64,000 nucleotides of DNA from a virus (IMGVR_UViG_3300021400_005610); one strand, 5' to 3'. Counted from the stretch's first letter, positions 46,186 to 64,000 are shown. Translations and numbers: made by a program. The notes: a model not told the origin generated them from the sequence alone.

Positions 46186-46190
46186 TCGAT

Positions 46191-46267: not shown

Positions 46268-46276
46268 AATAAATAT

Positions 46277-46354
46277 GGTGCCATAGTCGAACTGGTTGAA
46301 GACACTGGCCTTTCAAGCCAGAGAGTCGGGGTTCAAGTCCCCGTGGCATCACCA
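46277..46354 (+). tRNA. tRNA-Glu (TTC)
   Basis: Acceptor ggtgcca/tggcatc, anticodon arm ctggc-ctTTCaa-gccag, T-arm cgggg-ttcaagt-ccccg, CCA. Confidence 0.8.
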
Positions 46355-46357
46355 TAT

Positions 46358-46433
46358 GCGGTAGTAGCGCAATTGGTAGCGCACCACCTTGCCAAGGTGG
46401 ATGTTGCGGGTTCAAGCCCCGTCTACCGCTCCA
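46358..46433 (+). tRNA. tRNA-Gly (GCC)
   Basis: Acceptor gcggtag/ctaccgc, anticodon arm ccacc-ttGCCaa-ggtgg, T-arm gcggg-ttcaagc-cccgt, CCA. Confidence 0.85.
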
Positions 46434-46511
46434 GGTCCCTTCTTCTAATTGGTTTAGGAAGTTGGCCTCTCAAGCCAAAAATGCTGAGTTCGAGTCTCGC
46501 AGGGATCACCA
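46434..46511 (+). tRNA. tRNA-Glu (CTC)
   Basis: Acceptor ggtccct/agggatc, anticodon arm ttggc-ctCTCaa-gccaa. The T-arm has one mismatch. CCA. A C34 Glu isoacceptor is uncommon in low-GC bacteria. Confidence 0.65.
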
Positions 46512-46588
46512 GTGCCCGTAACTCAATGGAATAGAGTAACGGTCTTCTAAACCGTAAGTTATGGGTTCGAATCCCATCGGGCATGCCA
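46512..46588 (+). tRNA. tRNA-Arg (TCT)
   Basis: Anticodon arm acggt-ctTCTaa-accgt, T-arm atggg-ttcgaat-cccat, CCA. Confidence 0.8.
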
Positions 46589-46622
46589 TGGGTTTGTATA
46601 AATCAAAGAAAGGATGTGAAAA

Positions 46623-46859
46623 ATGGTATCTGTAAGGGTGTTATTGAATTCATTGGAAAAGGTTAAGTCTTTTGTTTCGATTGTCGGTAAGTTTGATGCA
46701 GATATGGAAATTGTTTCTGGTAAGTATATTGTTGATGCAAAGTCTATTATGGGTTTATTCAGTATGAATTTGTTAGAGCCAATGACGTTGGTTATTAAAG
46801 CAGACAATCCTGCTTGTGTGAATGTATTGGATGATATTAGACCATATGTTTATGGTTGA
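46623..46859 (+). CDS. HPr/Crh-like phosphocarrier-fold protein lacking the His15 active site
   Basis: 78 aa with a GAAAGGA RBS. GKYIVDAKSIMGLFSMNL matches the HPr Ser46 region (KSIMG), but the His15 position is replaced (LNSLEK), as in Crh. Confidence 0.55.
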   Translation: MVSVRVLLNSLEKVKSFVSIVGKFDADMEIVSGKYIVDAKSIMGLFSMNLLEPMTLVIKADNPACVNVLDDIRPYVYG

Positions 46860-46862
46860 TAT

Positions 46863-46940
46863 GCGCTTGTAGCTTAATTGGTAGAGCAGCGGACTCTTAA
46901 TCCGAAGGTTTTGGGGGTTCAAGTCCCTTCAGGCGCACCA
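46863..46940 (+). tRNA. tRNA-Lys (CTT)
   Basis: Acceptor gcgcttg/caggcgc, D-arm gctt-aattggta-gagc, anticodon arm gcgga-ctCTTaa-tccga, T-arm ggggg-ttcaagt-ccctt, CCA. Confidence 0.75.
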
Positions 46941-46988
46941 TCGAGTCCTACTATTGTCATTAGGCTGTTGAGCCGTAAGGAGGACATT

Positions 46989-47585
46989 ATGAGTTATTAC
47001 TATAATTATTATGTCGGATATAAGAAAGATGGAAAGATTTATCCGTGGGGTCCTTACAATGCGAATGGTAAGTTAGAACCAATGGTCAGTCGTTCCAGAT
47101 CTTTTGCTTCGGATTTACATGAGGAGTTTGATACTGTATCTGATAAGGAAGTTTCAGAAGAACTTCGTAAAGAATTTGAGTATGAGGATTGGAATAAGGT
47201 CAAGCATCTTGATGTAAAATATCTTTCCGAAAAGGATTTACCGACAGGAAGTTATATTAGGACAGGTTATTTTTTGATTAAAGATGTCCAAGCATATGAG
47301 CATGATGAGTATGGTAATTTCGAAGGTTTTTATGATGTCCTTAGTCCTGAAGTTTATGCGGCAAAATTACAGCATGAAATGATGTTTGGTAAGAATCAAC
47401 CTGAGAAAGACGATGAAGGCAATGAATATACAGAGCCAAATGCATCGGATTATATGTACTATGCGTATCCTAATTATGAGACGAAAGAGTACGAATCGTT
47501 CATTCTTCGGCAGTTAATTGAGGCTTTGCGTGATTATCGTTTGGGTAATGATATTGAGTATGTCGTTTTAGAAACGGAAGGTTGA
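46989..47585 (+). CDS. hypothetical protein (Tyr-rich N-terminus)
   Basis: Strong RBS GTAAGGAGG. The track ORF start at 46878 overlaps the tRNA and is rejected in favour of ATG 46989. Confidence 0.55.
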   Translation: MSYYYNYYVGYKKDGKIYPWGPYNANGKLEPMVSRSRSFASDLHEEFDTVSDKEVSEELRKEFEYEDWNKVKHLDVKYLSEKDLPTGSYIRTGYFLIKDVQAYEHDEYGNFEGFYDVLSPEVYAAKLQHEMMFGKNQPEKDDEGNEYTEPNASDYMYYAYPNYETKEYESFILRQLIEALRDYRLGNDIEYVVLETEG

Positions 47586-47596
47586 TCCTTTCGTAT

Positions 47597-47670
47597 CGAG
47601 ATGGTGGTGTAATGGTAGCACGCATCGTTCGGGACGATGAGGCGACGTTCAAATCGTACCATTTCGACCA
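47597..47670 (+). tRNA. tRNA-Pro (CGG)
   Basis: Acceptor cgagatg/catttcg, anticodon arm catcg-ttCGGga-cgatg with G37. The T-arm is weak at 3 bp. CCA. Confidence 0.6.
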
Positions 47671-47696
47671 ATTTCTTATGTAAAGGGGTTAACGGT

Positions 47697-47966
47697 ATGT
47701 TCCATAACATTGTGATTGGCAGACCTTTGGTTGAGCCGTGGAAGTTAATTTCAAGTTCTAAAGAAGAGTTTGAAAGATTTGATAAACGCGATACGTTATT
47801 TACCAATGAGAGGTTTCTTCCAGCTGTGCTTGTAGAAGCAAATGTCGTATCTTCTCGTGGAGAAGTTCGAAGAAATAAACCAGAATTATGTAAGGAACTG
47901 AATAATTTGGATTGTTTGTGGGTAAAATGGGGGAAACAGAAGATTTATGTGATTGTTGGTGAGTAA
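47697..47966 (+). CDS. hypothetical protein
   Basis: ATG 47697 is preceded by AAAGGGG. The track ORF start at 47637 overlaps the tRNA. Confidence 0.45.
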   Translation: MFHNIVIGRPLVEPWKLISSSKEEFERFDKRDTLFTNERFLPAVLVEANVVSSRGEVRRNKPELCKELNNLDCLWVKWGKQKIYVIVGE

Positions 47967-47969
47967 TTT

Positions 47970-48045
47970 GCGTCTGTAGCTTAGGCGGTAGAGCAGCGGA
48001 CTTTTAATCCGAAGGTCGGGAGTTCAAGTCTCCCCAGACGCACCA
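47970..48045 (+). tRNA. tRNA-Lys (TTT)
   Basis: Perfect acceptor gcgtctg/cagacgc, anticodon arm gcgga-ctTTTaa-tccga, T-arm gggag-ttcaagt-ctccc, CCA. Confidence 0.85.
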
Positions 48046-48340
48046 GTGTGTTGGTAGCCAAGCAATAAAAGGCAGTAAGACAATAGCGGTTCCATTAAGC
48101 AGAACACTTGGAGAACGAACTCCAGAGCGCATGGCGGCTAAGAGAGACTCTGTATAGTAAAATGACCGAGTGCTGAAGCATTTATATTATGCAGAGGGAG
48201 ACCCAATCGACAAGGTGAATGAGGTCGAGCCTACGCAGTTTCACCAAATAACGTTGTGTCACTCTGTATGGAACGTCGTGTGATTGATGTCGAAACCTGC
48301 GTCGTGGATGCAGAAGTCGACTACTGCACACCCAACACAC
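48046..48340 (+). ncRNA. candidate ~295-nt structured non-coding RNA between tRNA-Lys and tRNA-Pro
   Basis: No credible ORF on either strand. A terminal 9-bp helix gtgtgttgg(48046)/ccaacacac(48332) closes the element. Internal helices are tggag-aacgaa-ctcca, tcgac-13nt-gtcga, a long-range acgcagtttc/gaaac-c-tgcgt pairing (48234/48292), and tgcag-10nt-ctgca. Confidence 0.4.
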
Positions 48341-48345
48341 ATTAT

Positions 48346-48421
48346 CTGGGTGTAGTGCAATTGGTAGCATGCGTGATTTGGGATCACGTGGTTGTGGGTT
48401 CAAATCCCGCCACTCAGACCA
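48346..48421 (+). tRNA. tRNA-Pro (TGG)
   Basis: Acceptor ctgggtg/cactcag, anticodon arm cgtga-ttTGGga-tcacg with G37, T-arm gtggg-ttcaaat-cccgc, CCA. Confidence 0.8.
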
Positions 48422-48498
48422 AATTTGTGTATTGTGTTATCTCCGTGGCGGATTTATAATTTTTGTAGAAATAAATCCAGAAAGGATGGTAAGTTGAT

Positions 48499-48972
48499 AT
48501 GGCAAATGAAATCAAAAACGGAAGATTGCATGTTGATGGGAAGAGAATTCCGTTGTCTATGGATGAAGCTCGTTCTATGAAGATGAATGCCTTTACAGGA
48601 CGACAGGTATCTGAAGAAGCATCGGTTGAAATTCCTGAAGATAAGAAGGGTCAATATGCTTTTACACAGGATATTCTGCAGAAGAAGATGAAGCCTGATA
48701 AGGAATTGTCGTATACGGAAGATGAATATAAAGCTGCTGAAGATGTGTATGGCAGAATGCGTACAGCACAATCCATGGCTATGGATAGTTTGATGCCATC
48801 TGATGAAGAGTTTAAGGCTTTAAATACCGATGCGTTTACGGCTGTTACGAGGGATGCTGCTGAGAGAGAAGCTGAAGCAAAGCGTCAGGAGCGTTTGAAG
48901 AAAGCCGAAGAATTGTCGTCACGTGTTAGTGAACCGACAGAATCTCCACTGGCAGAGTACGGAATTTATTAA
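48499..48972 (+). CDS. hypothetical protein
   Basis: 157 aa with an AAAGGATGG RBS. Charged and probably helical. Confidence 0.5.
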   Translation: MANEIKNGRLHVDGKRIPLSMDEARSMKMNAFTGRQVSEEASVEIPEDKKGQYAFTQDILQKKMKPDKELSYTEDEYKAAEDVYGRMRTAQSMAMDSLMPSDEEFKALNTDAFTAVTRDAAEREAEAKRQERLKKAEELSSRVSEPTESPLAEYGIY

Positions 48973-49220
48973 AACTTTTTTCTCGAAATCTATTGATTTC
49001 TGAGTAAAAGTATGGTATTATATAGTTGCGTCGGAAAGACGAGAAGAAATGAGAAAGGATGTCACGAAAATGATGAATTTCACTATGAGTCAAAGTTCAC
49101 AGGTCATTATTCGCTGGTCGCAGGTATGCTCCCAGTTTATTTGTCGTGGACGGGTAACTCATTCCTAATGTGAGATCATCTGATTTTCTTTGTGATATTT
49201 GAGAAAAAGGGGAATCACAA

Positions 49221-49270
49221 CACCGTTCGCGATAGGATAGGATTATCCGAAGCGAGCGGTGTTTTTTATT
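49221..49270 (+). terminator. rho-independent terminator
   Basis: caccgttcgc ...21 nt... gcgagcggtg followed by ttttttatt. Confidence 0.6.
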
Positions 49271-49277
49271 AAAAAAT

Positions 49278-49366
49278 GGTAGTGTCGCTCAATGGTGGAG
49301 CAACTGCCTTGAAAGCAGCCAGTCGAGGGCCTCGACCTGCAGGTTCGAATCCTGCCACTACCGCCA
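49278..49366 (+). tRNA. tRNA-Ser (TGA), type II
   Basis: Perfect acceptor ggtagtg/cactacc. Anticodon loop ctTGAaa. Variable-arm hairpin gtcgagg-gcc-tcgac. T-arm gcagg-ttcgaat-cctgc, CCA. Confidence 0.8.
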
Positions 49367-49461
49367 GGTGATATAAACCTAATTGGTAAGGTCCCTGTCT
49401 CGAAAACAGGTAGTAGCCCTGTTAAAGGGGTGTTTCGGTTCAAGTCCGAATATCACCGCCA
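49367..49461 (+). tRNA. tRNA-Ser (CGA), type II
   Basis: Acceptor ggtgata/tatcacc, anticodon arm cctgt-ctCGAaa-acagg, long variable arm, T-arm ttcgg-ttcaagt-ccgaa, CCA. Confidence 0.8.
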
Positions 49462-49466
49462 CAAAT

Positions 49467-49560
49467 GGAGTCGTAAGCCTAATTGGTAAGGCGCCGATTT
49501 GGAAGGTCGGTAGTAATCCTGCTGAGGGGTGTGTTGGTTCGAGTCCAATCGACTCCGCCA
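49467..49560 (+). tRNA. tRNA-Ser (GGA), type II
   Basis: Acceptor ggagtcg/cgactcc, anticodon arm ccgat-ttGGAag-gtcgg, long variable arm, T-arm gttgg-ttcgagt-ccaat, CCA. Confidence 0.8.
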
Positions 49561-49580
49561 TTTGAAAGGATGTGTGAAGT

Positions 49581-49871
49581 TTGACAGAACAAAGAGTATT
49601 GGAATTTATTCATAGACGCTTTCCTCAGGATTGTAACTGGAAGAATGGAAATTGTTATTTCTTTGCAGTGATTCTAAAAAGTAGATTTCCAGAAGGAATT
49701 ATTCTTTACGATGTGATTGACGGTCATTTTGTGACACACATCGATGGACGAAATTATGACTGGTCGGGTGTTGTTTCTGATGAAGGAAAGCATTATTATG
49801 TTGAGTGGGATTATTTCGATGAGTATGATTCTAATCAGAAGAAATCTGTGATTGACGGATGTATTCTTTGA
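49581..49871 (+). CDS. hypothetical protein (TTG start)
   Basis: GAAAGGA RBS 10 nt upstream of TTG 49581. The only upstream in-frame ATG is immediately followed by a stop. Confidence 0.45.
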   Translation: MTEQRVLEFIHRRFPQDCNWKNGNCYFFAVILKSRFPEGIILYDVIDGHFVTHIDGRNYDWSGVVSDEGKHYYVEWDYFDEYDSNQKKSVIDGCIL

Positions 49872-49876
49872 TAAAT

Positions 49877-49951
49877 AGGGGTATGGTGTTAACGGTAGCA
49901 TATCGGTCTCCAAAACCGCAGGTGAGGGTTCGAGTCCTTCTGCCCCTGCCA
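49877..49951 (+). tRNA. tRNA-Trp (CCA)
   Basis: Acceptor aggggta/tgcccct, anticodon loop ctCCAaa on a 4 bp stem, T-arm gaggg-ttcgagt-ccttc, CCA. Confidence 0.7.
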
Positions 49952-50093
49952 CGTTCAGAGTCATGAACTGAACGATATCTTAACGATTCGTAAGTGACGT
50001 AATCAGCTGTAAAGACGTGCCACCTGAAGCATTCGATATGTACGGTGCTTTGGGTGAGATCCGACTATGAATCGGCGAAGACGAATCGGATAT

Positions 50094-50170
50094 AGGGTGT
50101 TAGCTCAGCTGGGACGAGCATTTGTCTTACAAGCAAAAGGTCGTGGGTTCGATCCCCACACACCCTACCA
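50094..50170 (+). tRNA. tRNA-Val (TAC)
   Basis: D-arm gctc-agctgggac-gagc, anticodon arm tttgt-ctTACaa-gcaaa, T-arm gtggg-ttcgatc-cccac, CCA. Confidence 0.8.
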
Positions 50171-50245
50171 TGGGATATGGCGTAATTGGTAACGCATCGG
50201 ACTCTGACTCCGAAGTTACAGGTTCAAGTCCTGTTGTCCCAGCCA
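50171..50245 (+). tRNA. tRNA-Gln (CTG)
   Basis: A U1-A72 pair as in bacterial tRNA-Gln. Anticodon arm tcgga-ctCTGac-tccga, T-arm acagg-ttcaagt-cctgt, CCA. Confidence 0.8.
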
Positions 50246-50320
50246 TGGGTTATAGCGTAAGTGGTAGCGCACGGGACTTTGACTCCCGACGTACAGGTTC
50301 GAGCCCTGTTAGCCCAGCCA
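50246..50320 (+). tRNA. tRNA-Gln (TTG)
   Basis: Acceptor tgggtta/tagccca, anticodon arm cggga-ctTTGac-tcccg, T-arm acagg-ttcgagc-cctgt, CCA. Confidence 0.8.
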
Positions 50321-50414
50321 GGAGACGTAGCATAGTCGGTCGAATGCACCCGCCTGCTAAGCGGGAGAACGGTGAATAATCGTTCCGAGGGTTCGAATCC
50401 CTCCGTCTCCGCCA
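50321..50414 (+). tRNA. tRNA-Ser (GCT), type II
   Basis: Perfect acceptor ggagacg/cgtctcc, anticodon arm cccgc-ctGCTaa-gcggg, long variable arm, T-arm gaggg-ttcgaat-ccctc, CCA. Confidence 0.85.
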
Positions 50415-50453
50415 TGTTGTATTGATTGGCTTTTATTATGAAAGGTTGTGATT

Positions 50454-50960
50454 ATGAGTATAGAAACTGCAGAAGCGTTATTTAAGAAATATGATGGTCA
50501 TATTAATCTTTTACGGAAAAACGAACCGTCATCGTATGCAATCATAAGCGCTGCGTGCTTGAGTGATGATTGTTACGAAGAGTGGCGTAAAGAAATTTTG
50601 GACGGCATAACGCAAATGGGTGTTTCTGATATTTTCAATATTACATGGTTTATTCGTTTTGTGTCTGTATTTAAAGAAATGAATCGGAATGAAACATATC
50701 GGTTTGATTGTTTGGTTGATTTATTGAGAGCATATGTGAAGAGCAATGATTCTTGTAAGATCGAGATATTGCGTAAGATGGTTGGTAATGTTCGTTTCGG
50801 TTATCGAGATGGCTTGCTTTATTGGGTGTTACGAAATACTTCTGGATTTAGTGTCGTAGAGGCTATTATGCAGCAGAATTATGTAAATGTAGATTCTAAT
50901 AATCCTTCTTTAGTTGATCTGAGTGAGCAATATAAGAAGGCTGTATATAAATTTGTGTGA
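50454..50960 (+). CDS. hypothetical protein
   Basis: ATG 50454 has a GAAAGG RBS. The track start GTG 50448 is also possible. Confidence 0.5.
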   Translation: MSIETAEALFKKYDGHINLLRKNEPSSYAIISAACLSDDCYEEWRKEILDGITQMGVSDIFNITWFIRFVSVFKEMNRNETYRFDCLVDLLRAYVKSNDSCKIEILRKMVGNVRFGYRDGLLYWVLRNTSGFSVVEAIMQQNYVNVDSNNPSLVDLSEQYKKAVYKFV

Positions 50961-50965
50961 TATTT

Positions 50966-51042
50966 GACTGCGTACCCAAGTGGCTTAAGGGGGCAGACTG
51001 CAAATCTGTTATTCGTTGGTTCGAATCCAACCGTAGTCTCCA
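50966..51042 (+). tRNA. tRNA-Cys (GCA)
   Basis: Acceptor gactgcg/cgtagtc, anticodon arm gcaga-ctGCAaa-tctgt, T-arm gttgg-ttcgaat-ccaac, CCA. Confidence 0.75.
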
Positions 51043-51119
51043 TCTGGAGTAGCTCAGACGGTTAGAGCGTCCGCCTGATAAGCGGGAGGTCGGCAGTTCA
51101 AGTCTGCCCTTCAGAACCA
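51043..51119 (+). tRNA. tRNA-Ile (GAT)
   Basis: D-arm gctc-agacggtta-gagc, anticodon arm tccgc-ctGATaa-gcggg, T-arm ggcag-ttcaagt-ctgcc, CCA. U1-A72 is unusual. Confidence 0.75.
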
Positions 51120-51195
51120 GTCCCCATAGGCTAATGGAATAGACCCTTCGGCTACGAACCGAACAGTGGAGGTTCGAATCCTCCTGGGGATGCCA
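51120..51195 (+). tRNA. tRNA-Arg (ACG)
   Basis: Acceptor gtcccca/tggggat, anticodon arm ttcgg-ctACGaa-ccgaa, T-arm ggagg-ttcgaat-cctcc, CCA. Confidence 0.8.
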
Positions 51196-53059: not shown

Positions 53060-53110
53060 ATTTGTAGCTTAAATGGGCTTTAGTTCGCATTTAGGAAAGG
53101 ATTGAATGGA

Positions 53111-55672
53111 ATGTCGGAACACATTGAAGGAATTATTACTCGTTTAGTAAAAGGTACTCCGAAAGCAAACCGTTGGTTTGCAGGTAGTGTTCGTTTATCC
53201 GATGGAAGTTACGTTCGTGTTGCTGGTACAGCTAACGTGCGTGTAAATATAGGAATGACCATTGAGTTTAATGGTGATTTGGTTAGCACCAATTATGGTG
53301 ATCAGTATGAGCCTGTTTCAGGTGAATTGATTCGTCGTCGTTTAGTGACGAAATTTGAAATAATTTCGTTTTTGACGAGTCCTGTTTTTCCTGGTATTGG
53401 TGAGAAATCAGCAAAGCTGATTTATGAGAAATATAAAGACCAAACGATGCCTATGCTGGAACAGCATATGGATCAAGTTATTGCAGATTGTAAGCTGAAT
53501 AAGTCTCAAGCTGCTGGTTTGGTCAAAGGTATTTCTTCTACTTCTGGTTTGGCAAAGCTGAAGTATACATTTCCGCATATGAAGCAGTATCTTTTGGATA
53601 GAATTTTAGATACTGTCGATGTACGTCATTTGGATGATGTTGTCGATAGGATTTGTAGAAATCCATATACTGCGTTATATGGTGATACTGGTTTCAATGT
53701 GTCATTGTATGATACAGATGAGATTGCCCTTTTGGATGTTGGTTTTGATGAATATGCGAAAGAACGTATTGATTTGGTGGTGTATGCTGCTTTGTCAGAA
53801 TTTATGGGTGACAAGAACGCTACTTACGTGAAGATTGATTATGATCATAATTTTGCGGAATATACTTGGTTTTTTAACAAGTATGTTCGTGCGGTTAGAC
53901 TTTTCAAGCCGTTGCCGATATATTGGGATGGCATGTTGTTTGATGCCAACTGTTTAGCTATGAAGTTTCAACAGTATTGGGATGATATTCATAGTTTTTC
54001 GTCCTGTGTTTGTTCGGATAGACGAATCAACCCTGATGGAACAGGGGAGTTTGATTTGTATCAGAAGAAAATTTATTTGGCAGAAAAGTCTTTAGTGGAA
54101 CAAATCAATCGTTCTTACAATGATACGATGAATACGGCTTATATGAAGAGAACGGTTAAGTTCGTTCAATGGTATAAGGCGATGAAAGCGGAAGGTGTTT
54201 ACACAAACACGAATCCTGATCAAGATCAAGTTGCTGCTGTAAGGCAAGTATTTGGTTCTTGTATGTCATTTTTGTCAGGCGGACCTGGTCGTGGTAAGAC
54301 CGCAACCATTGGTTTTTTGATTAATGCGTGGAAACAGTCTGTTGGTAATCATATTCTGTTGCTTGCACCTACAGGTAAGGCTGTGAATAAGGTGAAGGAT
54401 GCAACGAAGTACGTGAATGCTGAGACCATTCGTCGTTTCATTTTAATCAATAAATTGAAACGTACTAAAGATTCAGATTATATCTTGGATATGTATGGCG
54501 ATAAGATGCCTATTGGTCTGAATACATTAGTTGTTATTGATGAAACGTCCATGTTGGACTTTGTGGAAGCAAGCGATCTGTTGTCTGTTATTGACGGTTG
54601 TACGATTGTGTTTTCTGGTGATAAGGATCAGTTATCTCCGATTAGTCCTGGTTCATTTCTTTCGGAAATGTTGGATAGTCATAAGATTAATCTGTCTCTT
54701 TTGACACATAACTATCGTACTGATGTCCCTGAGTTGGGCGAGAATGCAGATAAGATATTAGCTGGTTGTAAGGTTACGGATTTGACTTTGACAGATAATT
54801 TTAGTATTATTCCATCAAAGGAACGTGCGGATGATGGCGGTTTGTCGCCAGCTGAAAAGTACATTCTGAATGAATATGCTGATCGCATGGCAGAAGGTGC
54901 TGATTTTTCGGACATTCTTGTTGTTGCGCCATTTACGAATAGTAAGTATGGTTTGTCAGCAGGCCATTTGAATTATGTCTTACAGGCAAGATTTAATCCA
55001 CAAGATGATAAGGCGTATTATAAGTATGGCCAGGATGATTACGGACGGTATATCGATAAGAGAGGTAAGGAATGCCCTGTCTTAGATAAGTCTGGTAATC
55101 GTGTGCGTCTTGGTGATCGTGTTATTAACAATCGTAATAACATGGATGCGTCTTGGCATAGTTTTAAGAATGATAATGTTGGTTACGAATCGTCTTTGGA
55201 CGATCCAATAGATAGTGCGATTAACACGGGTGTGTTTAATGGCGATATGGGTACCATCGAGCGTTATTACGAAGCAACGGATTCTGATGGTCCGAGGATT
55301 TTGGTCTGTTTGGATCAGCTTTCTCCGTATGGAAAGCGTCGTTATGTGTGGGTTGATTGCGAGTCTGATTTTCATGGTGTATGGCATTTAGCCGATTGGA
55401 CTTTAGGTTATGCACTTAGCGTACACAAAGCACAGGGTAGTGAGGCTCGCCATGTAATTGTGGCTTTATCTGAAGAAGGTTATAAAGCCGTCAGTTGGCG
55501 TGTTATGAATGGTTCAGCTCCATTCTTGACGAGAAACATGTTGTATACAGCTGTGACTCGTGCAAAAGAATCAGTACGGATTATCGGTAGTTTAGTTGCG
55601 TTGCAAGCTTGTTTAGATATGCCGTATTACTACTGTAATGTTCGTTTGGCTGAGGCGTTAGATAAAGCATAA
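53111..55672 (+). CDS. RecD2-like superfamily-1 DNA helicase
   Basis: Walker A SGGPGRGKTATIG and Walker B VVIDETSMLD. The C-terminal VHKAQGSEARHVIV is a RecD/TraA-like motif. The N-terminal ~300 aa extension includes an HhH-like segment. Confidence 0.85.
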   Translation: MSEHIEGIITRLVKGTPKANRWFAGSVRLSDGSYVRVAGTANVRVNIGMTIEFNGDLVSTNYGDQYEPVSGELIRRRLVTKFEIISFLTSPVFPGIGEKSAKLIYEKYKDQTMPMLEQHMDQVIADCKLNKSQAAGLVKGISSTSGLAKLKYTFPHMKQYLLDRILDTVDVRHLDDVVDRICRNPYTALYGDTGFNVSLYDTDEIALLDVGFDEYAKERIDLVVYAALSEFMGDKNATYVKIDYDHNFAEYTWFFNKYVRAVRLFKPLPIYWDGMLFDANCLAMKFQQYWDDIHSFSSCVCSDRRINPDGTGEFDLYQKKIYLAEKSLVEQINRSYNDTMNTAYMKRTVKFVQWYKAMKAEGVYTNTNPDQDQVAAVRQVFGSCMSFLSGGPGRGKTATIGFLINAWKQSVGNHILLLAPTGKAVNKVKDATKYVNAETIRRFILINKLKRTKDSDYILDMYGDKMPIGLNTLVVIDETSMLDFVEASDLLSVIDGCTIVFSGDKDQLSPISPGSFLSEMLDSHKINLSLLTHNYRTDVPELGENADKILAGCKVTDLTLTDNFSIIPSKERADDGGLSPAEKYILNEYADRMAEGADFSDILVVAPFTNSKYGLSAGHLNYVLQARFNPQDDKAYYKYGQDDYGRYIDKRGKECPVLDKSGNRVRLGDRVINNRNNMDASWHSFKNDNVGYESSLDDPIDSAINTGVFNGDMGTIERYYEATDSDGPRILVCLDQLSPYGKRRYVWVDCESDFHGVWHLADWTLGYALSVHKAQGSEARHVIVALSEEGYKAVSWRVMNGSAPFLTRNMLYTAVTRAKESVRIIGSLVALQACLDMPYYYCNVRLAEALDKA

Positions 55673-55692: not shown

Positions 55693-57075
55693 ATGGCTGA
55701 TGTTTTTATAAGAGATGATAATTCGCTTGATGATTCTCAAGCGTATTACAAAGTAAAGATTAAGAAAGCATGGTTTCGTGGTCGAGACGTTTTTACGGAA
55801 CGACTGCATTACTATGAAAAGCAGTTGATTCGCAATCCTGTTGTGTATATTCCGCTGAATGCAGGAAATATGATTTATACCATGATGCACCGTCTTGAGA
55901 CGGGTGTTGAATGGGAAAAGCAGGCGGCTCTTATGGCATCGTATAGAAATCTGGTGTATCGTTTGTCGTACACACAGGTTTCTTGGCATAAGGATGATGC
56001 TCAATTTATTGTTTTTGAGGGTCAGAAGTCTGACGTTATGTGGTCTATGGCTTTCATCACGCAGGTCTTCTTTGAAGATCCTATGCTGTGTATGACGATT
56101 CCATCTCGTCCAGACGAACCTGTGATTGCGTTTGCAATTCAGAATGGTGAGTATGTTGGTAAGAACGCTGTGATTTCACAGAAGACAAATGCTCTTCCAG
56201 ACATTTGGTCTACAGAAGCGGCGGGTGTTGTTACTGATGATATGCAGTATGATCCGACACATGAACCACAAGGTGGCGAAGTATTTGCTATTCCTGATGG
56301 TCGTATTGCTCAGTATATTCGTATGGATGAACGGTTCTATCATGCGAATCGTACAGGTCCAAAGACCGATGCTATTACACGGCATAACATTTCTGCGAGT
56401 CTTATTAAAGACTTTGAAGACCTTATTTATTCGCAGACAAAGACTGCGTTTGATGTCTATCAGTTGCGTTATGTAGCGTTCATGAATAAGGTACATGATT
56501 TGGAAAACAAGCTTGGCGGTTTGGAAATTACATGTTATGATGTGCTGCCTATCGCTGAGAGAGGTTTGCCACTTGCGTCTATTGATACGATTTCCCGTAC
56601 CAATTCTTTGGATTGTAACTCTTTGAAATACATTTTGGATTCTATTCAACGAGATGGTGTGGAGGAGTCTGAGCGAAAGATGATTGCGAAGAATGCGGCT
56701 CGATCTGTGTCGATGCGTCAGAAAGGATACGAAGATGAATATCGTATGTATTTAGCGACAGGTACGCCTGAGAATCTGGCTGCTGAAATGTATAAACGTA
56801 TGATTTCTGAATTGTATAATGATTTCGCTCGTTTGGATGCTATTAGAGCATTTGGTTTCTCTCCAAATATTTATCGTGATTTGTGTAATGTGCCTGCATC
56901 AGGTGGTCCTGTTATGACAGACTGGGAGCGTCAGCGTATTCGTCTGTTTGGCAAAGGTTATTTGGACTTTTTGAATTATCAGATTAAGATGAGTCAAAAT
57001 AAGGCAAAAGGTCGTGTTTGGGTAGAAGCAAAGCGTCTTTTAGATGCCCGATTTATGAGGGCTGTTCGAAAATAG
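55693..57075 (+). CDS. hypothetical protein co-transcribed with helicase
   Basis: 460 aa. Starts 21 nt after the helicase stop with a GGAGG RBS. No recognisable motifs. Confidence 0.5.
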   Translation: MADVFIRDDNSLDDSQAYYKVKIKKAWFRGRDVFTERLHYYEKQLIRNPVVYIPLNAGNMIYTMMHRLETGVEWEKQAALMASYRNLVYRLSYTQVSWHKDDAQFIVFEGQKSDVMWSMAFITQVFFEDPMLCMTIPSRPDEPVIAFAIQNGEYVGKNAVISQKTNALPDIWSTEAAGVVTDDMQYDPTHEPQGGEVFAIPDGRIAQYIRMDERFYHANRTGPKTDAITRHNISASLIKDFEDLIYSQTKTAFDVYQLRYVAFMNKVHDLENKLGGLEITCYDVLPIAERGLPLASIDTISRTNSLDCNSLKYILDSIQRDGVEESERKMIAKNAARSVSMRQKGYEDEYRMYLATGTPENLAAEMYKRMISELYNDFARLDAIRAFGFSPNIYRDLCNVPASGGPVMTDWERQRIRLFGKGYLDFLNYQIKMSQNKAKGRVWVEAKRLLDARFMRAVRK

Positions 57076-57477: not shown

Positions 57478-60051
57478 ATGCCAAAGAAAGATCATAAGGT
57501 ATCGTCCAATGGACAACAGGGTGGTAAATCATCTTCGGTTCGTATTAAGAGCTGGGATGATTGGTTTAATCTTTGTGGCACGTTAATTGCTGATTTACAA
57601 GCGTATGAAAAGTTAATGCAAGAGTATTATTTTGATACTCAGTATCAGAATGATAGTGACTCACAACATGCTGCGCAGTTAGCTTATCAATCAAAGCATA
57701 ATAAACGATTCTTTGAGTCGGATAGGCAGATTCCGAAATGGATGCAGACAAAAGCTTTGACGAGCGGTGCGGTTGGTGTAGTTGTTGGTCTTGTTGTTGC
57801 AGCTTTTCTTAGTATTATAGCTGGTATGAAAGCAACTGGTGGTATAGCTTTCACTGGTTTCGGTTGGCGTGCTATTGTATTTGGACTGATTTTTGGTGGC
57901 TTGTTCGGTTATCTGCCGATTTTCTTACATAAGAACAAGTTACGGAAGATTTTCTCACAGATGCGGGTTATCGAAGATCGTATCTCAGATAAGATTACGT
58001 ATATTCCGCCGAAATATAGAAATAGTCAATCTGTCAATACCTTTTACGATTTGTATTGTAGTTATGGTATTGTGACGTTCAATCAGGCAATTGAAGCTTG
58101 TGATGATTATCTGACGAGCAACAATTTGGTTGGTGCATATATGGCGGAATTATTTGATTTGCCTTATATGAACGGTTTATCTGCAGATGAACGTAATGGT
58201 TTTGATAAAGATGAGGCTCTGAAAGATCCGAATCTTCCTGATGATATTGCAAGCAAAACCTTTACTGGTGTTGAGAATGCAGACGAACAGTTGGATGCAT
58301 TGATTGGTCTTTCCAATGTGAAAGAACAGATTCGTCAGATGAAGAACCGTATGAATTTTTATGGTTCAAAAGGAACTGCAGATAGTATTTCAGGAAATCA
58401 TATGGTCTTCCTTGGCCCTCCAGGTACAGGTAAAACGACAGTTGCTCGTATCATCACACGTATTCTTTATGACTTTGGTTATATCAAAGAGAATAAATGC
58501 GTCGAGATTGACGGTGGATATTTGAAGTCTCCGTATTCTGGTCAGACAACAGAACGTGCAAATGCGATTATTAAATACGCATTGGGTGGTGTTTTGTTGA
58601 TTGATGAAGCTTATATTTTGACTGAGGATAAGAATGGTTCTCAGGGTGCCGAGGCTGTTGGTGTTCTGTTGAAAGCAATGGAAGATCATAAGAATGACTT
58701 CGTTTGTATTCTTGCTGGTTATGAGGACAATATGAATAGAATGTTGGCTTCAAACGAAGGTTTCCAGTCTCGTATTAAATATAAGATTTATTTTGAGAAT
58801 TTCACTGTTGATGAAATGGGTGAGATTTTCCGTCAGCTTATGAAGAAGGGAAGTTCCCATAGGTATAAGATTGAGAAAGAAGCATTTGAGACGTTGAAAC
58901 AGCATTTTGCTCGTGAGCGTCGTATTGCTGGTTTCGGTAATGCTCGTGTTGTTCGTACTGCGTGGGATTCCATCTTGGATGTTCATGCTGATCGTTATAT
59001 GCGGAAGGAAGTAGACGAAGAGCACAAGTTTGTTATTACGAAGGAAGATATTGAGCAATATACAGAGGTTCGTCGTAAACAGATGGTGGAAGACGGACGT
59101 AACTTTATTGCAAGTCGTAATCTTGATTCGACGGTTATTTCTCTGACTGAGTTAAAGCAGAAGACAAAGCCTGGTTCAGAGGATCCTGATAAGGACCTTG
59201 CTGCCTTGACAGGTTTGAATGTGGTTAAGGATGAGATCAAGCGTATGAAGGCGCAGTTTGCTTTCTATGATGGTAATCTTGAAAACAATGGTTACCACAT
59301 GGTATTCCTTGGTCCTCCTGGAACGGGTAAGACGACTGTTGCTGGTATCATGACTGGTTATCTGTATCAGATGGGCTTGATTCAGGAGAACAGTTATGTT
59401 GATATCAACGGTGATTTCTTGAGAGGTATGTATCTTGGACATACTGGTAAGCGTACAGAAGCTGTTGTTCAGTATGCACAAGGAATGGTTTTGTTTGTTG
59501 ATGAAGCATATTTGCTGACGTCATCTGGCGGTCAGTCTGACTCGTTTGGTCAGGAAGCTGTTGGTGTATTGATTGATGCGATGGAGAAGTATCGTCATAA
59601 TTTTGTGGTTATTTTTGCGGGTTATGAAAAGGAAATGTCTAATTTCTTAGATATGAACTCAGGTCTTCGTAGCCGTATCAATCTGGAATTCCATTTTGAA
59701 TCTTATACACCACATGAACTTGCTGGCATGTTTAGGAATGTTGCTAAGAATGAAGGATTTACGGTTGCTAAGGATGTTTGGGTTCCGATGCAACGCTACT
59801 TTAAGGATAAAGTGGCTGATCCGAAGTTTGGTAATGGTCGTTTCGTTCGTCAGTTCTTTGAGTCAATGAAGAAGCAGCATATTTTGAATTTTGCTGATGG
59901 CATGTATAGTGCCGATGAAAAGTATGTGTTTACATTAGACGATTTGAAGTCTGTTATCGATGCTGATACGGCTTTGACGGAACCAACGCCATATAATGAA
60001 TCTGCAAATGGTTCAGCATATGGTGGGGAAGAGGGTAACGATATTGTATGA
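57478..60051 (+). CDS. membrane-anchored tandem AAA+ ATPase (two SpoVK/CbbX-like modules)
   Basis: Two hydrophobic helices around aa 95-160. Module 1 has Walker A MVFLGPPGTGKTTVARI and Walker B LLIDEAY. Module 2 has MVFLGPPGTGKTTVAGI and LFVDEAY. GGAAAGGA RBS precedes ATG 57478 (the track starts at in-frame TTG 57460). Confidence 0.8.
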   Translation: MPKKDHKVSSNGQQGGKSSSVRIKSWDDWFNLCGTLIADLQAYEKLMQEYYFDTQYQNDSDSQHAAQLAYQSKHNKRFFESDRQIPKWMQTKALTSGAVGVVVGLVVAAFLSIIAGMKATGGIAFTGFGWRAIVFGLIFGGLFGYLPIFLHKNKLRKIFSQMRVIEDRISDKITYIPPKYRNSQSVNTFYDLYCSYGIVTFNQAIEACDDYLTSNNLVGAYMAELFDLPYMNGLSADERNGFDKDEALKDPNLPDDIASKTFTGVENADEQLDALIGLSNVKEQIRQMKNRMNFYGSKGTADSISGNHMVFLGPPGTGKTTVARIITRILYDFGYIKENKCVEIDGGYLKSPYSGQTTERANAIIKYALGGVLLIDEAYILTEDKNGSQGAEAVGVLLKAMEDHKNDFVCILAGYEDNMNRMLASNEGFQSRIKYKIYFENFTVDEMGEIFRQLMKKGSSHRYKIEKEAFETLKQHFARERRIAGFGNARVVRTAWDSILDVHADRYMRKEVDEEHKFVITKEDIEQYTEVRRKQMVEDGRNFIASRNLDSTVISLTELKQKTKPGSEDPDKDLAALTGLNVVKDEIKRMKAQFAFYDGNLENNGYHMVFLGPPGTGKTTVAGIMTGYLYQMGLIQENSYVDINGDFLRGMYLGHTGKRTEAVVQYAQGMVLFVDEAYLLTSSGGQSDSFGQEAVGVLIDAMEKYRHNFVVIFAGYEKEMSNFLDMNSGLRSRINLEFHFESYTPHELAGMFRNVAKNEGFTVAKDVWVPMQRYFKDKVADPKFGNGRFVRQFFESMKKQHILNFADGMYSADEKYVFTLDDLKSVIDADTALTEPTPYNESANGSAYGGEEGNDIV

Positions 60052-60530
60052 CATCGACATTAGAGTTCCAAACGGTTGCTAAACAGTGGTTATATAATGA
60101 GAAGATTGAGCAGATGCGAGATCTGGAGCATCATAGAGGAACTACTATTTATGATCATGTGTGTCATGTAGCTCAAAAGAGTTATAATTTTGCTAAGCGC
60201 TGTCCGTTCCATGTGGATACGGACAGTGTCTTAACAATCGCATTCTTGCATGATTATTTTCTGTATGATAGGAAGGTTCCGCATAGCAGGTTGTATCATA
60301 GTTATCGACATCCTGTGATTGCTGCAGAAAATGCATTGCGTGATTTTAATATAGGGAAAAAAGAATATCTTGGTATTCTTACACATATGTGGCCTCAGGT
60401 GCCTTGGTTGTTTCCACGAAGTAGGGAGGCTTGGATTGTTTGCTTTGCCGACAAAGTGTGTGCGATTCAAGAATATGCAAGACGTGATTGTGCACGGAAT
60501 CGTAAAGTCCAGAAAAAACCTCATAAATGA
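60048..60530 (+). CDS. HD-domain phosphohydrolase
   Basis: H..H (HRGTTIYDHVCHV) and the HD motif (AFLHDY). The start ATG overlaps the AAA+ stop (ATGA), implying translational coupling. Confidence 0.7.
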   Translation: MTSTLEFQTVAKQWLYNEKIEQMRDLEHHRGTTIYDHVCHVAQKSYNFAKRCPFHVDTDSVLTIAFLHDYFLYDRKVPHSRLYHSYRHPVIAAENALRDFNIGKKEYLGILTHMWPQVPWLFPRSREAWIVCFADKVCAIQEYARRDCARNRKVQKKPHK

Positions 60531-60634
60531 GGTGAAAATACTGGACTTTATTTTAATTATCTGATATAATGTATATGAACCTATGATGAAATATTCTTGT
60601 GAAAACAAGTTTTGTGTTAGAGGAGTTTTGAAAT

Positions 60635-63064
60635 ATGGCCGTTGATTTAAAAAGTGTTGATAGCAAGAGCAGGTATATGCTTAAAAGAGATATGTCTCTT
60701 TTAAAGAAGGTAAATGATTTATCTGATTCGATTAGCAGTATGACCGATGACGGTTTGCGTGAATTGGCAAGAGATTTGCGTAAGCGTTCACTTCGTTGTA
60801 AATCTTTGGATGAATTGTTACCTGAAGCGTTTGCGTTGGTGCGTGAAGCGTCTCTGCGTACAACAGGTTTGTATCCTTATGATGTTCAGATTCTTGGTGG
60901 AATTGAACTCTATCGAGGACGTATTGCTGAGATGAAAACAGGTGAAGGTAAAACTCTCGTTGCTGCTATGCCGTCATTTTTAATGGCTTTGTCGGGAAAA
61001 GGCGTACATGTGGTTACGGTCAATGATTATTTGGCAAAGCGTGATGCTGCAGACATTGGACGAATTCATACGTTCCTTGGATTGAGTGTTGGTTGTGTAA
61101 CAAACGATACTAATCCGACTGACCGTAAGAAAGCATATCAGTGCGATATCACGTATGTGACAAACACAGAACTTGGGTTTGATTATTTGCGTGATAATAT
61201 GGTTGTAAAGCCTGAGCGTAGAGTTCAGAGAGGTTTGCATTATTGTATCATTGATGAGGTCGATTCAATTTTGATTGATGAGGCTCGTACACCTTTGATT
61301 ATTTCTGGAGCACAGACGAAAGAAATGAATATCTATCAGCATTGTGATATGATTGCTAGTATGCTGGTGAAGGGCAAGAAAAGTCCTGAAGTTTCAAAGG
61401 TTGATATGATTTCTGGTGTTCGTGAACAAGAAGAAGGCGATTATATCGTCGATGAGAAGGAACATACGGTTCATTTGACAGATGCAGGTGTTGCAAAAGT
61501 CGAAAAAATGCTTGGTATTTCAAATTATTCTTCTGATCGATATGGTGACGTGAGACACCATTTACAGATGGCTTTGCAAGCACATGGTTTGATGCATCGA
61601 GATAAAGATTATATCGTGCGTGATGGCGAGGTTGTTATTGTTGATGAATTCACAGGTCGTGTGATGCCTGGTCGTGTTTTTTCTGATGGTTTACATCAGG
61701 CGATTGAGGCCAAGGAGCACGTAGAGGTTCATCCAGAGACGAACACTTTGGCGACAATCACGTATCAGAATTTCTTTAATAAATATGCCATTAAGTGTGG
61801 AATGACGGGTACGGCGAAGACATCTGCTGAAGAATTTAAGACCATTTATGGCTTGGTCGTTTGTGTTGTGCCGACAAATGTTCCTGTTCGGCGTGTTGAC
61901 GAAGGCGATGTTGTTTTTTTAACACGAGAGGCGAAGCGTAAAGCCGTAGTTAATGAGATTTTAGATGCGTATAAGAGACGACAGCCTGTTTTGGTTGGTA
62001 CTACTACCATTAAGGAATCAGAGATTTTATCAGAACATTTGAAGGCGTTTAATATTCCGCATAATGTTTTAAATGCAAAATATCATAAGCAAGAAGCTGA
62101 GATTATTTCTCATGCTGGTGAGGCTGGTCGTATTACGATTGCTACGAATATGGCTGGTCGAGGAACGGATATTAAGTTGACAGACGAGGCAAAAGAAGCT
62201 GGTGGTCTTTATGTGATTGGTACGGAACGTCATGAGGCTCGTCGTATCGACAATCAGCTGAGGGGTCGTTCTGGTAGGCAGGGGGATCCTGGTAAGTCTA
62301 AGTTCTTTTTGTCTTTAGATGATGATGTAATGAGACTGTTTGGCTCATCTAAGATTTTGGATATGCTGAAGTCGATGGGTCTTGATGAATGGGCACCAAT
62401 TGAACATAAATCAATCACAGGACTTGTTGATAAGGCACAGAAGAAGATTGAAGGTGTTAACTTCGGTATTCGTAAGTCTCTGTTAGATTTTGATGAGGTT
62501 AACAATGAGCAGCGTGAGTTGATTTATGCTCAGAGGAATGCCATCATGAATGGTGGCGATCCATCAAAAGCTATTACCGATATGATGATTGCCGTTGCTT
62601 GTGCAAAAGGTAAGAAGTATTTCGTGAAGAATTCGCCGAAAGAGTGGGATCTTTATCATTTCGGTAAGGATTGGAGCGATGTATTCCCGAAGCAACCTGT
62701 GATTGGAAAGAACAGAGCGAAGATGTTTGACAATTTGGAAGCATCTGTTTATACGCAGTATCAAGAACATTTTGCGGAGTTCGGTACGACAGAGCAGGGT
62801 CGAGAGTCTTTGAGATATGTACTGTTGAAGTGCATTGATCGAAATTGGATCAAACATTTGAATACATTGGAACATTTGAAACAAGCTGTAAATTTTGTTG
62901 GCTATGGTCAGAAAAATCCTGTGACGGTATATCGTGACAAATCGTATGATGCGTTTGAAGATATGCTCAAGACGATTCAGTATGAAACGGCTAAGTTCTG
63001 GTTTGTTATCAGACCGATGGCTGTTGAAGTTGTTTCGGCTGAGGGAAGTTCACCAAAATCATAA
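60635..63064 (+). CDS. secA2: SecA-family translocase ATPase, short form lacking C-terminal Zn-finger tail (SecA2-like)
   Basis: The N-terminus matches SecA DEAD motor motifs (KTGEGKTLVA, TVNDYLAKRDA, DEVDSILIDEARTPLIISG). It is 809 aa and ends without the Cys-rich CTD, like accessory SecA2. AGGAG RBS. Confidence 0.8.
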   Translation: MAVDLKSVDSKSRYMLKRDMSLLKKVNDLSDSISSMTDDGLRELARDLRKRSLRCKSLDELLPEAFALVREASLRTTGLYPYDVQILGGIELYRGRIAEMKTGEGKTLVAAMPSFLMALSGKGVHVVTVNDYLAKRDAADIGRIHTFLGLSVGCVTNDTNPTDRKKAYQCDITYVTNTELGFDYLRDNMVVKPERRVQRGLHYCIIDEVDSILIDEARTPLIISGAQTKEMNIYQHCDMIASMLVKGKKSPEVSKVDMISGVREQEEGDYIVDEKEHTVHLTDAGVAKVEKMLGISNYSSDRYGDVRHHLQMALQAHGLMHRDKDYIVRDGEVVIVDEFTGRVMPGRVFSDGLHQAIEAKEHVEVHPETNTLATITYQNFFNKYAIKCGMTGTAKTSAEEFKTIYGLVVCVVPTNVPVRRVDEGDVVFLTREAKRKAVVNEILDAYKRRQPVLVGTTTIKESEILSEHLKAFNIPHNVLNAKYHKQEAEIISHAGEAGRITIATNMAGRGTDIKLTDEAKEAGGLYVIGTERHEARRIDNQLRGRSGRQGDPGKSKFFLSLDDDVMRLFGSSKILDMLKSMGLDEWAPIEHKSITGLVDKAQKKIEGVNFGIRKSLLDFDEVNNEQRELIYAQRNAIMNGGDPSKAITDMMIAVACAKGKKYFVKNSPKEWDLYHFGKDWSDVFPKQPVIGKNRAKMFDNLEASVYTQYQEHFAEFGTTEQGRESLRYVLLKCIDRNWIKHLNTLEHLKQAVNFVGYGQKNPVTVYRDKSYDAFEDMLKTIQYETAKFWFVIRPMAVEVVSAEGSSPKS

Positions 63065-63234
63065 TAAGTTTCGTCTTAGTATAGCCCCATGGAACTTTTT
63101 GTTCTCTGGGGCTAATTTTTTATCATTCTTAACATTATTTCTTATTGATTTATCACAGTTTTTGTGGTAAACTTCAGCTTGTAGAAACCCTGTGAAAATC
63201 TAATACATCATCATTCTTGGAAGGAGATAGTGCT

Positions 63235-64000
63235 ATGAAGAGGATGAGAACAAAATGGATGGCTATGTCATCCGTCTTTTTGGTGTTGTCGTTGTTGTTA
63301 GTAACTGTTCTCCCCGCATCAATAGCTGGTGCCGAAGAATCGGCGTCTGGAAATATTGCGGAGGCTATTGCGGATCCAGATACATCCGACATGTATGTGG
63401 ATTATTTTGATGATATTGATGTCTCTCCAAGGTTTTGGAGTGACAAGAGTGTTACGGCTAATGAAGATGGCAGTATGTCGGTTGTCTATTCATTAATGGT
63501 CCGTAACAGCGTAACTGAAGACGAGACAATGTTGTCTGTCTTAAACCAAGAATCTGATGTTGAAATCAAGGATGTTATTGGGAAAGGTTTTGAACTTGGT
63601 TCCGATATTGTGATTCGCAATGAGGACGGTGTATTTACTGCACAGAAAGACGAGTTCAATGTGACGTCGGAGATGAGCGGCGACAGCGAGGCGGTGCCTT
63701 CTGTATCGTATGATTATGATACGAAAGAAATAGTCGTAAATATGCGTGCTGCATCAATAGGAAATATTGATAATGGTTCATGTACGACGATTGCATTTTC
63801 ACTTGTTCCGAATCCTGAGGAGTTTGAGAGTGGTACACTTGAGTATTATGCTGATGGTAATTCTGTTGTAACTGGACTGTTGTCAGACGGTGTTGTGTTA
63901 GAACCTGAGACTCTTGAGAAATCGGAAGATGTGACTGGTCTTACATCTTTGTATAAGACGAGAGAAGTCTTTGATGGTTATGTTGTAGATACAATCTACA
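63235..64000 (+). CDS. secreted protein with N-terminal signal peptide (3' partial, runs off window)
   Basis: GGAAGGAG RBS. Signal peptide MKRMRTKWMAMSSVFLVLSLLLVTVLPASIAGA. The frame is open to the window end. Confidence 0.65.
   Translation, partial: MKRMRTKWMAMSSVFLVLSLLLVTVLPASIAGAEESASGNIAEAIADPDTSDMYVDYFDDIDVSPRFWSDKSVTANEDGSMSVVYSLMVRNSVTEDETMLSVLNQESDVEIKDVIGKGFELGSDIVIRNEDGVFTAQKDEFNVTSEMSGDSEAVPSVSYDYDTKEIVVNMRAASIGNIDNGSCTTIAFSLVPNPEEFESGTLEYYADGNSVVTGLLSDGVVLEPETLEKSEDVTGLTSLYKTREVFDGYVVDTIY

Follow-up and report, generated by a model that had tools for sequence, protein, structure and literature searches.

Accessory SecA proteins have been described either as paralogues on the chromosomes of a few Gram-positive pathogens or as components of SecA2/SecY2 islands for adhesin export. 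What these accessory Sec (aSec) systems export is a glycoprotein with serine-rich repeats, whose extended signal peptide measures about 90 aa. In the so-called SecA2-only systems, the accessory SecA is smaller than SecA1 and has a truncated C-terminal linker or tail (PMC9736482). Here we describe a SecA encoded in a 64,000-nucleotide stretch catalogued as a virus (IMGVR_UViG_3300021400_005610; the whole stretch is referred to as the window), whose gene content is that of a giant conjugative element. Judged by profile scores and tree position, this SecA is no member of any known SecA2 family and forms a separate, element-specific lineage of SecA1 ancestry. In contrast to the accessory SecAs known so far, the lineage is monophyletic, resides on giant conjugative elements and has diverged to 45-64% identity, keeping its catalytic motifs and losing the regulatory tail. 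Building on the observed integrity of the gene, the conservation of its motifs, its phylogenetic position, the backbone synteny and the element context, we put the probability at roughly 50% that this protein is an active, tail-less SecA that serves as a multi-substrate accessory motor in the backbone of 250-360 kb conjugative elements, independently of the SecA2 families.

The window SecA and its relatives

Four Pfam domains were matched in the 809-aa product of the window's secA gene (SecA_DEAD PF07517, SecA_PP_bind PF01043, P-loop_SecA PF21090 and SecA_SW PF07516; Table 1). All ATPase motifs are present (Walker A MKTGEGKT, Walker B DEVD, TGTA and TNMAGRGTDI), as are the arginine-finger motif LRGRSGRQGDPG and the two-helix-finger tyrosine. 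A preliminary reading of the DNA by a model (the sequence-only reading) had claimed complete motor motifs and the lack of a Cys-rich C-terminal tail, and both observations held. The SEC-C motif (PF02810) was not matched in the Pfam scan, the pattern CxC...C[CH] is absent from the final 60 residues, and no Cys cluster occurs at the C-terminus (...FWFVIRPMAVEVVSAEGSSPKS); an overlooked zinc finger was thus not seen. Chromosomal relatives terminate in a CPCGSGKKYKQCCG zinc finger and measure 848-929 aa, versus 809 aa for the window SecA. Although nine clade members share only 57-64% identity, none of them deviates in the ATPase motifs or the two-helix-finger tyrosine, which indicates purifying selection, and the open reading frame (ORF) is complete in all nine element lineages that carry it.

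As for expression signals, a GAGGAG ribosome-binding site (60620-60625) lies 9 nt 5' of the secA ATG, and a promoter-like site with a weak consensus match lies further 5'; such sites are no more numerous in the secA region than in shuffled sequence. An intrinsic-terminator-like hairpin begins 18 nt past the stop codon. The RNA between secA and the next gene folds at -44.3 kcal/mol (z = -3.3), more stable than all 200 shuffles. A simple terminator scan did not list this hairpin, probably because its stem is interrupted.

When scored against NCBIfam models, the window SecA passed the cut-offs for canonical SecA (NF009538, 1005.5 vs 814; TIGR00963, 954.3 vs 800; NF006630, 899.2 vs 862) and missed all four for SecA2, namely TIGR04397 (B. 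anthracis-type, 856.5 vs 1085), TIGR03714 (aSec, 743.2 vs 930), NF012136 (Listeria, 636.2 vs 1100) and TIGR04221 (mycobacterial, 608 vs 725). Among solved structures it best matched B. subtilis SecA (732 bits), with C. difficile SecA2 (6sxh) at 699 bits. A search of 5.8 billion proteins returned a group of exclusively metagenomic, tail-less SecAs, 798-841 aa long and 57-64% identical to the window SecA, on contigs of up to 296 kb, followed by hundreds of zinc-finger SecAs, mostly of 858 aa, from Lachnospiraceae/Eubacteriales at 53-54%. Identity amounts to 52-54% with Lachnospiraceae housekeeping SecA, 32-40% with annotated SecA2s and 35-38% with aSec SecA2s.

The phylogeny was built by neighbour-joining on corrected p-distances over 775-779 trimmed columns, with reference SecA1s and annotated SecA2s from PLSDB records. 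The tail-less element SecAs formed a clade with 100% bootstrap support, which was sister to the Lachnospiraceae-type chromosomal SecA1s in 79% of replicates (64% in an enlarged tree) and grouped with any SecA2 in only 10%. Two more distant element SecAs, from L111 and L112, are 45-51% identical to the window SecA and join its clade at 96%. The zinc finger is absent in every clade member and kept in 11 of 12 chromosomal relatives checked. As a family assignment, the label SecA2-like, which the sequence-only reading had given, is therefore not supported: every SecA2 model stayed below its cut-off, the canonical cut-offs were passed, and the tree points to Clostridia-type SecA1 descent. The same reading had considered a housekeeping SecA1 captured on the element; the SecA1-like origin stands, but the capture appears to be ancient, and the lineage has since diverged and lost the tail. 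As the L111 and L112 SecAs join the clade, the simplest history would be a single ancient acquisition from a Clostridia-type housekeeping SecA, with the linker and zinc finger lost thereafter from the C-terminus as the lineage diverged alongside the element.

Outside the clade, a contig scan for SecA yielded, among the matches listed, only chromosomal SecAs, mostly with a zinc finger, at <=52% identity and mostly from Lachnospiraceae metagenome-assembled genomes. We also considered a phage gene and rejected this option. Tblastn against a phage collection gave <=52% identity, and the best match checked, MT835502, encodes an 856-aa zinc-finger SecA and is therefore probably bacterial DNA; PHROGs gave no structural phage matches among the neighbouring window proteins. 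One PHROG of 'unknown' function, phrog_32805 (806 positions), matches the window SecA at 801.7 bits and is a SecA family.

Gene order across the element family

Gene contexts were compared for the window, six other SecA-clade members and three distant elements found via a 460-aa backbone marker; the nine SecA-bearing lineages comprise seven close ones plus the distant L111 and L112. In these nine, the tail-less SecA occupies the same backbone position, on contigs of 244-364 kb (L111, 364 kb; L112, 296 kb), with a RecD2-like helicase and the 460-aa marker on its 5' side. In the seven close lineages, genes for a deaminase, RNase H, DUF2130 and DUF4349 form a block on the 3' side, each lineage having most of them. 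A double AAA+ ATPase gene is the 5' neighbour of secA in 8/9 lineages, at times separated from it by a single small gene; the small gene was called in five of the nine, and its match to an HD domain is weak and restricted to the window and L002. Five of the seven close lineages encode a DUF5684 protein (small, with three transmembrane (TM) segments and a charged C-terminal tail) 3' of SecA, at gaps of -1 to 45 nt, the place that the terminator and an adhesin gene occupy in the window. Such a SHIRT/Cna_B adhesin gene follows secA in two of the nine lineages, the window and its closest relative. This gene order marks SecA as an old backbone gene of the element family and speaks against a private exporter for the neighbouring adhesin.

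The 460-aa marker, present in the window, L002, L005, L008 and L110-L113, is the best-conserved backbone gene, at 73-76% identity between elements whose SecAs share 58-63%; the L111 and L112 versions are about 46-48% identical to that of the window. It occurs in 77 protein clusters, all metagenomic, on contigs of up to 364 kb, and had no match in Pfam, NCBIfam, PHROG or PADLOC, nor in PLSDB or INPHARED. The element family was not seen in GTDB species representatives or IMG/VR, a weak negative given two peptide patterns per scan. A 305 kb Subdoligranulum 'plasmid' (OY725868) was rejected as a family member; it carries a 920-aa zinc-finger SecA and is unrelated to the family.

Two relatives showed further features at or near this site. 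L110, the most abundant related lineage (249 kb contig), has no SecA after its double AAA+ gene; at SecA's position it encodes a 142-aa protein with a SEC-C motif (PF02810), the module missing from the element SecAs. In L112 (296 kb contig), a giant surface protein of >6000 aa with CHAP, DUF285, LRR_5, SpaA and Cna_B domains, resembling the giant surface proteins of Hodor megaplasmids, is encoded just 5' of the RecD2/marker/AAA+/SecA block.

Possible roles of the element SecA

In the host cell, probably an uncultured, Lachnospiraceae-like Firmicute, the element SecA would act as a second, accessory SecA beside the host's own. We propose that it binds preproteins with a signal peptide and powers their passage through the host SecYEG, a route we infer because no SecY was seen nearby: SecY2, Asp1-3 and GtfA/B were found neither within 10 kb on either side of SecA nor among the Pfam-scanned ORFs of the window. 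Among its substrates may be components of type IV secretion, a cell-wall hydrolase and adhesins anchored by sortase, the product of the neighbouring gene being one of these; by a crude hydropathy heuristic, many proteins of the transfer region (about 9.5-29 kb) have signal-peptide-like N-termini or TM segments. For the element, the benefit could be added export capacity, or export independent of the host SecA, for its secreted and membrane proteins. Relatives encode a signal peptidase I 8-10 kb 3' of SecA and, in one lineage, a sortase. The protein would then be a functional analogue, independently evolved, of the multi-substrate SecA2-only systems.

Several points weigh against this proposal. 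The mean outgroup distance is 0.91-0.94 in the element clade versus 0.65-0.76 in its chromosomal sisters, indicating faster evolution, and SecA also evolves faster than the neighbouring marker gene (58-63% vs 73-76% identity). The surplus change clusters in the first 25 residues, the helical wing domain (HWD) and the IRA1/two-helix-finger region, which could point to an altered partner or function in place of plain SecYEG export; in PPXD and both nucleotide-binding domains the acceleration is mild. Besides, the trees are distance-based and not maximum likelihood, and co-residence with a host SecA1 is deduced solely from the universality of SecA in bacteria. The portion read (the window plus 10 kb beyond it, L001) amounts to about 74 kb of 284 kb, so that an element-encoded SecY or other partners may be located in the remainder. 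Within that portion, tblastn found no homologues of sortase, signal peptidase or DUF5684, and the export toolkit is thus documented in relatives, not in the window's element.

The sequence-only reading had suspected that the protein encoded directly downstream is the dedicated substrate of a SecA2, for example an adhesin. The full sequence bears out the adhesin part of this guess. From its domain order, the protein is a sortase-anchored, stalk-type adhesin: behind the signal peptide come an N-terminal region of ~230 aa, unmatched in Pfam, and an acidic SE/PE linker; past the window end follow six SHIRT repeats, a Cna_B domain and an MPETG motif. Its C-terminus (...MPETGSLTAILLAIGGGIIVIGGVIWFIISKKKDDEEDDD) consists of MPETG, in which the first motif residue is M and not L, a hydrophobic TM helix and a KKK tail, and its L005 ortholog matches PF00746 (Gram_pos_anchor). 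Single-sequence AlphaFold2 gave an unusable model of the N-terminal domain (pLDDT 37). That SecA is dedicated to this adhesin would fit with the adjacency of the two genes in the window (in the closest lineage, P0003, a DUF5684 gene lies between), with the orthology of the two adhesins (37% identity), each with the unusual sorting motif MPETG, and with the missing tail, as in SecA2s. However, seven of the nine SecA-bearing lineages have no adhesin gene 3' of SecA, and in the window a terminator hairpin with U-run separates the two genes, the adhesin gene starting from an ATG with its own GGAGA ribosome-binding site. The signal peptide (MKRMRTKWMAMSSVFLVLSLLLVTVLPASIAGA, followed by EE) has an n-region of charge +4 and an AXA site, with cleavage between AGA and EE; it is positively charged, as had been noted, yet at 33 aa it is of ordinary Gram-positive length and not long. 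There is thus no extended leader of the serine-rich-repeat type, and there are no serine-rich repeats either, the sole Ser-rich stretch being the acidic linker of ~25 aa. Taken together with the lack of SecY2, Asp and Gtf genes in the flanking 10 kb and of any SecA2 hidden Markov model match above cut-off, this makes a dedicated SecA2-substrate pair improbable.

Rated next after a multi-substrate accessory motor, yet itself doubtful, is a specialised export module of SecA, the membrane-anchored double AAA+ ATPase and, ancestrally, DUF5684, in which for instance an unfoldase or chaperone would hand over substrates at a dedicated membrane site. The AAA+ gene keeps its place next to secA, or one small gene away, in all but one of the nine lineages, L111 and L112 included, and DUF5684 follows SecA at a short distance in most close lineages; in L112 it is found in the vicinity of SecA. 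The AAA+ protein, with its two TM segments, resembles EccA, SpoVK and CbbX, and the excess divergence of SecA falls in its regulatory, SecY-facing C-domain. On the other hand, the elements are collinear with all genes on one strand, so that the conserved adjacency may be mere backbone synteny. Lineage P0028 has SecA and neither the AAA+ gene nor DUF5684, DUF5684 is missing from the window, L110 has the AAA+ gene and no SecA, and a promoter-like site and a terminator of its own seem to flank secA; PHROG and PADLOC scans revealed no known system that combines these families. In the neighbourhood of SecA, PADLOC gave generic RecD and AAA matches only and no defence system, and the best PHROG match of the AAA+ protein is phrog_4339, a family of unknown function. 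We regard it as rather unlikely that AAA+, SecA and DUF5684 constitute an unrecognised element export pathway, passed on by vertical descent in an as yet undescribed superfamily of conjugative elements (250-360 kb, with complete tRNA sets) and representing an independent, mobile-element origin of a SecA2-like system; if they did, this pathway would install the element's surface and transfer proteins independently of the host SecA. Least probable is a passenger SecA without a selected export role, be it a decaying captured housekeeping gene or one recruited to a non-secretory function. Its rate of evolution, in excess of both chromosomal SecA and the adjoining backbone gene, the lost C-terminal tail and the abundant lineage without SecA at this position would agree with such a fate, but the full-length ORF in nine lineages at 45-64% identity, the invariance of all catalytic motifs, the mild acceleration of PPXD and nucleotide-binding domains and the retention of the gene since before the lineages split argue against it.

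The replicon and its described counterparts

An exact-protein look-up traced the window SecA to a metagenomic scaffold of 284,210 bp, and the element hence measures at least 284 kb. By their names alone, the sample codes may denote rumen studies of sheep and cattle. The window has a GC content of ~41%, a strongly positive GC skew (+0.17 to +0.32) over the entire 64 kb, and every substantial ORF on the + strand. As it encodes a relaxase and a coupling protein, the replicon is a conjugative element; with the VirB4 fragment, ParA and the ParM-like protein, its genes identify it as a giant conjugative plasmid or integrative and conjugative element (ICE), in agreement with the sequence-only reading, which had placed SecA on a plasmid or ICE. 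A NikA-like protein, topoisomerase III, a cell-wall hydrolase and a block of membrane and secreted proteins are also encoded, and the interval from the relaxase gene to that of the coupling protein contains genes for an SPFH protein and a ClpB-like AAA+ protein.

Table 1. Coordinates of features in the window and in related elements (window numbering unless a lineage handle is given).
Feature	Location	Strand	Basis or remark
ParM/ALP-like protein	8-1033	+	profile match
SPFH/Band 7, ClpB-like and MscS-type genes	31449-35144, 1136-1909	+	
ParA	2045-2827	+	profile match
D5-type primase-helicase	3683-5389	+	profile match
VirB4 N-terminal fragment, 292 aa	9514-10392	+	NF045975, profile positions 25-277 of 894
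681-aa ORF	10396-12441	+	no family match
1515-aa ORF	15061-19608		collagen-like repeat match
MobL/MobP2-like relaxase	29311-31410	+	profile match
VirD4-type coupling protein, 1263 aa	37522-41313	+	profile match
tRNA array, 36 genes	43007-51195	+	ARAGORN, Rfam
RNaseH_like protein	43468-43977		in tRNA array
Mrr-type nuclease	44137-44733		in tRNA array
RecD2-like SF1B helicase	53102-55672	+	profile match
460-aa backbone marker, no known domain	55693-57075	+	conservation
Membrane-anchored double AAA+ ATPase, SpoVK/EccA/CbbX type, 863 aa	57460..60051	+	profile match; 2 TM, about aa 97-149
160-aa protein, weak HD-domain match	60048..60530	+	start overlaps AAA+ stop
Promoter-like site 5' of secA (TGGACT, 17-nt spacer, TATAAT with TG extension)	60542..60570	+	weak consensus match
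secA (SecA, 809 aa; NBD1, PPXD, NBD2, HSD/HWD; no zinc-finger tail)	60635..63064	+	ORF, Pfam, tree
Intrinsic-terminator-like hairpin, 8+5 bp stem (63082-63114), then UUUUUU (63116-63121)	63082..63121	+	RNA fold
Sortase-anchored surface protein, 5' part (255 codons) of 976 aa	63235..64000	+	continues in L001:12601-15531
DUF5684 genes	L002:12542-13024, L005:12479-13018, L008:12457-12966, L024:12471-12863, L028:12471-12983, L112:17994-18464		3-TM protein near SecA
142-aa protein with SEC-C motif	L110:14577-15005		at SecA's position
Giant surface protein, >6000 aa	L112:1-7158		

Some additional features of the window deserve mention. Its tRNA array decodes all 20 amino acids (36 genes by ARAGORN, with 36 Rfam matches above the gathering score) and is interspersed with small ORFs, including those for an RNaseH_like protein and an Mrr-type nuclease. 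The 681-aa ORF beside the VirB4 fragment may represent a split or highly divergent VirB4. Between 16 and 20 kb, inside the 1515-aa ORF, GC rises to 0.49-0.53 as against about 0.41. Cell-physiology genes unusual for a plasmid were also found, namely those for the SPFH/Band 7 protein, the ClpB-like double AAA+ chaperone (600 aa) and an MscS-type channel.

The interest of the locus is raised mainly by the element family that this SecA marks, the practical value being modest until a host is identified. The lineage can moreover be viewed as a natural experiment on SecA function without the C-terminal tail. A full-text literature search returned no description of a plasmid- or phage-encoded SecA lineage of this kind.

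Both by sequence (52-54%) and in the tree, the SecA1s of Clostridia/Lachnospiraceae are nearest to the window SecA, with which they share the four-domain architecture and identical ATPase motifs. They differ in that nearly all of them keep the linker and the CPCGSGKKYKQCCG zinc finger, whereas the window SecA lacks these, is element-borne and sits on a longer branch. The SecA2-only systems of Listeria, B. anthracis, C. difficile and mycobacteria likewise comprise a second, C-terminally truncated SecA with no SecY2 nearby, presumably working through SecYEG; yet these families are chromosomal and 32-40% identical, and the window SecA falls outside them, on a conjugative element. Plasmids are not foreign to SecA2 either, and the statement of the sequence-only reading that SecA2 genes are normally chromosomal was too strong: in PLSDB, plasmid-borne secA2 genes occur in Staphylococcus, Lactiplantibacillus, Enterococcus, Clostridium estertheticum and Gordonia, with full aSec loci among them. 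Such SecA2/SecY2 loci, e.g. on the S. saprophyticus plasmid pSSAP1, resemble the window in having an extra SecA beside the gene for an LPXTG-type adhesin. They differ in encoding SecY2, Asp1-3, GtfA/B and a serine-rich-repeat glycoprotein, whereas the window has none of these within 10 kb and a SHIRT/Cna_B adhesin instead.

Zinc-finger-less SecAs are also encoded on three mutually unrelated Firmicute megaplasmids of 400-500 kb, namely BTB_502p of B. thuringiensis Bt407, pJFP838A of C. perfringens and pB6464 of Alkaliphilus. These are 45-47% identical to the window SecA, form a separate branch nearer to the SecA2 groups and apart from SecA1, and belong to different element backbones, the 460-aa marker having no PLSDB match. 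The Bt407 and pB6464 proteins are annotated (798 and 810 aa), while that of pJFP838A, of about 760+ aa, is unannotated, not in the gene table and possibly disrupted. As to the downstream gene, 'periscope'-type adhesins with SHIRT stalks share with its product the signal peptide, N-terminal domain, stalk and sorting signal. LPXTG adhesins are encoded on Gram-positive conjugative elements, e.g. those of the PrgB type; their sorting motif is LPXTG, in contrast to the MPETG of the downstream protein, whose N-terminal domain has no Pfam match.

Among large elements, the 'Hodor' megaplasmids encode SecY/E/G, trigger factor, sortases and giant surface proteins (PMC12934698), and the 'Inocle' elements signal peptidase, sortase and LPXTG proteins (PMC12340149); SecA is unmentioned in the main text of both papers. 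Like the window's element, they are conjugative or giant, exceed 250 kb and encode parts of a secretion and surface-anchoring pathway. By description, Hodor has Rep_3, a MOBH-like HD relaxase with a separate helicase, a SecY/G/E-trigger factor-sortase B module and 44.6-47.1% GC. The window's element, by contrast, has a MobL/MobP2-like relaxase, a D5-type primase-helicase and ~41% GC, with no Rep_3 or SecY in the 64 kb, and it also differs from Inocle in GC content (24-32% in the latter). Together with Hodor and Inocle, the present element suggests that carrying parts of the pathway for export and surface display is routine among very large Firmicute elements. If this is true, such elements may remodel the surface of their hosts, with consequences for adhesion, mating-pair formation and possibly host range.

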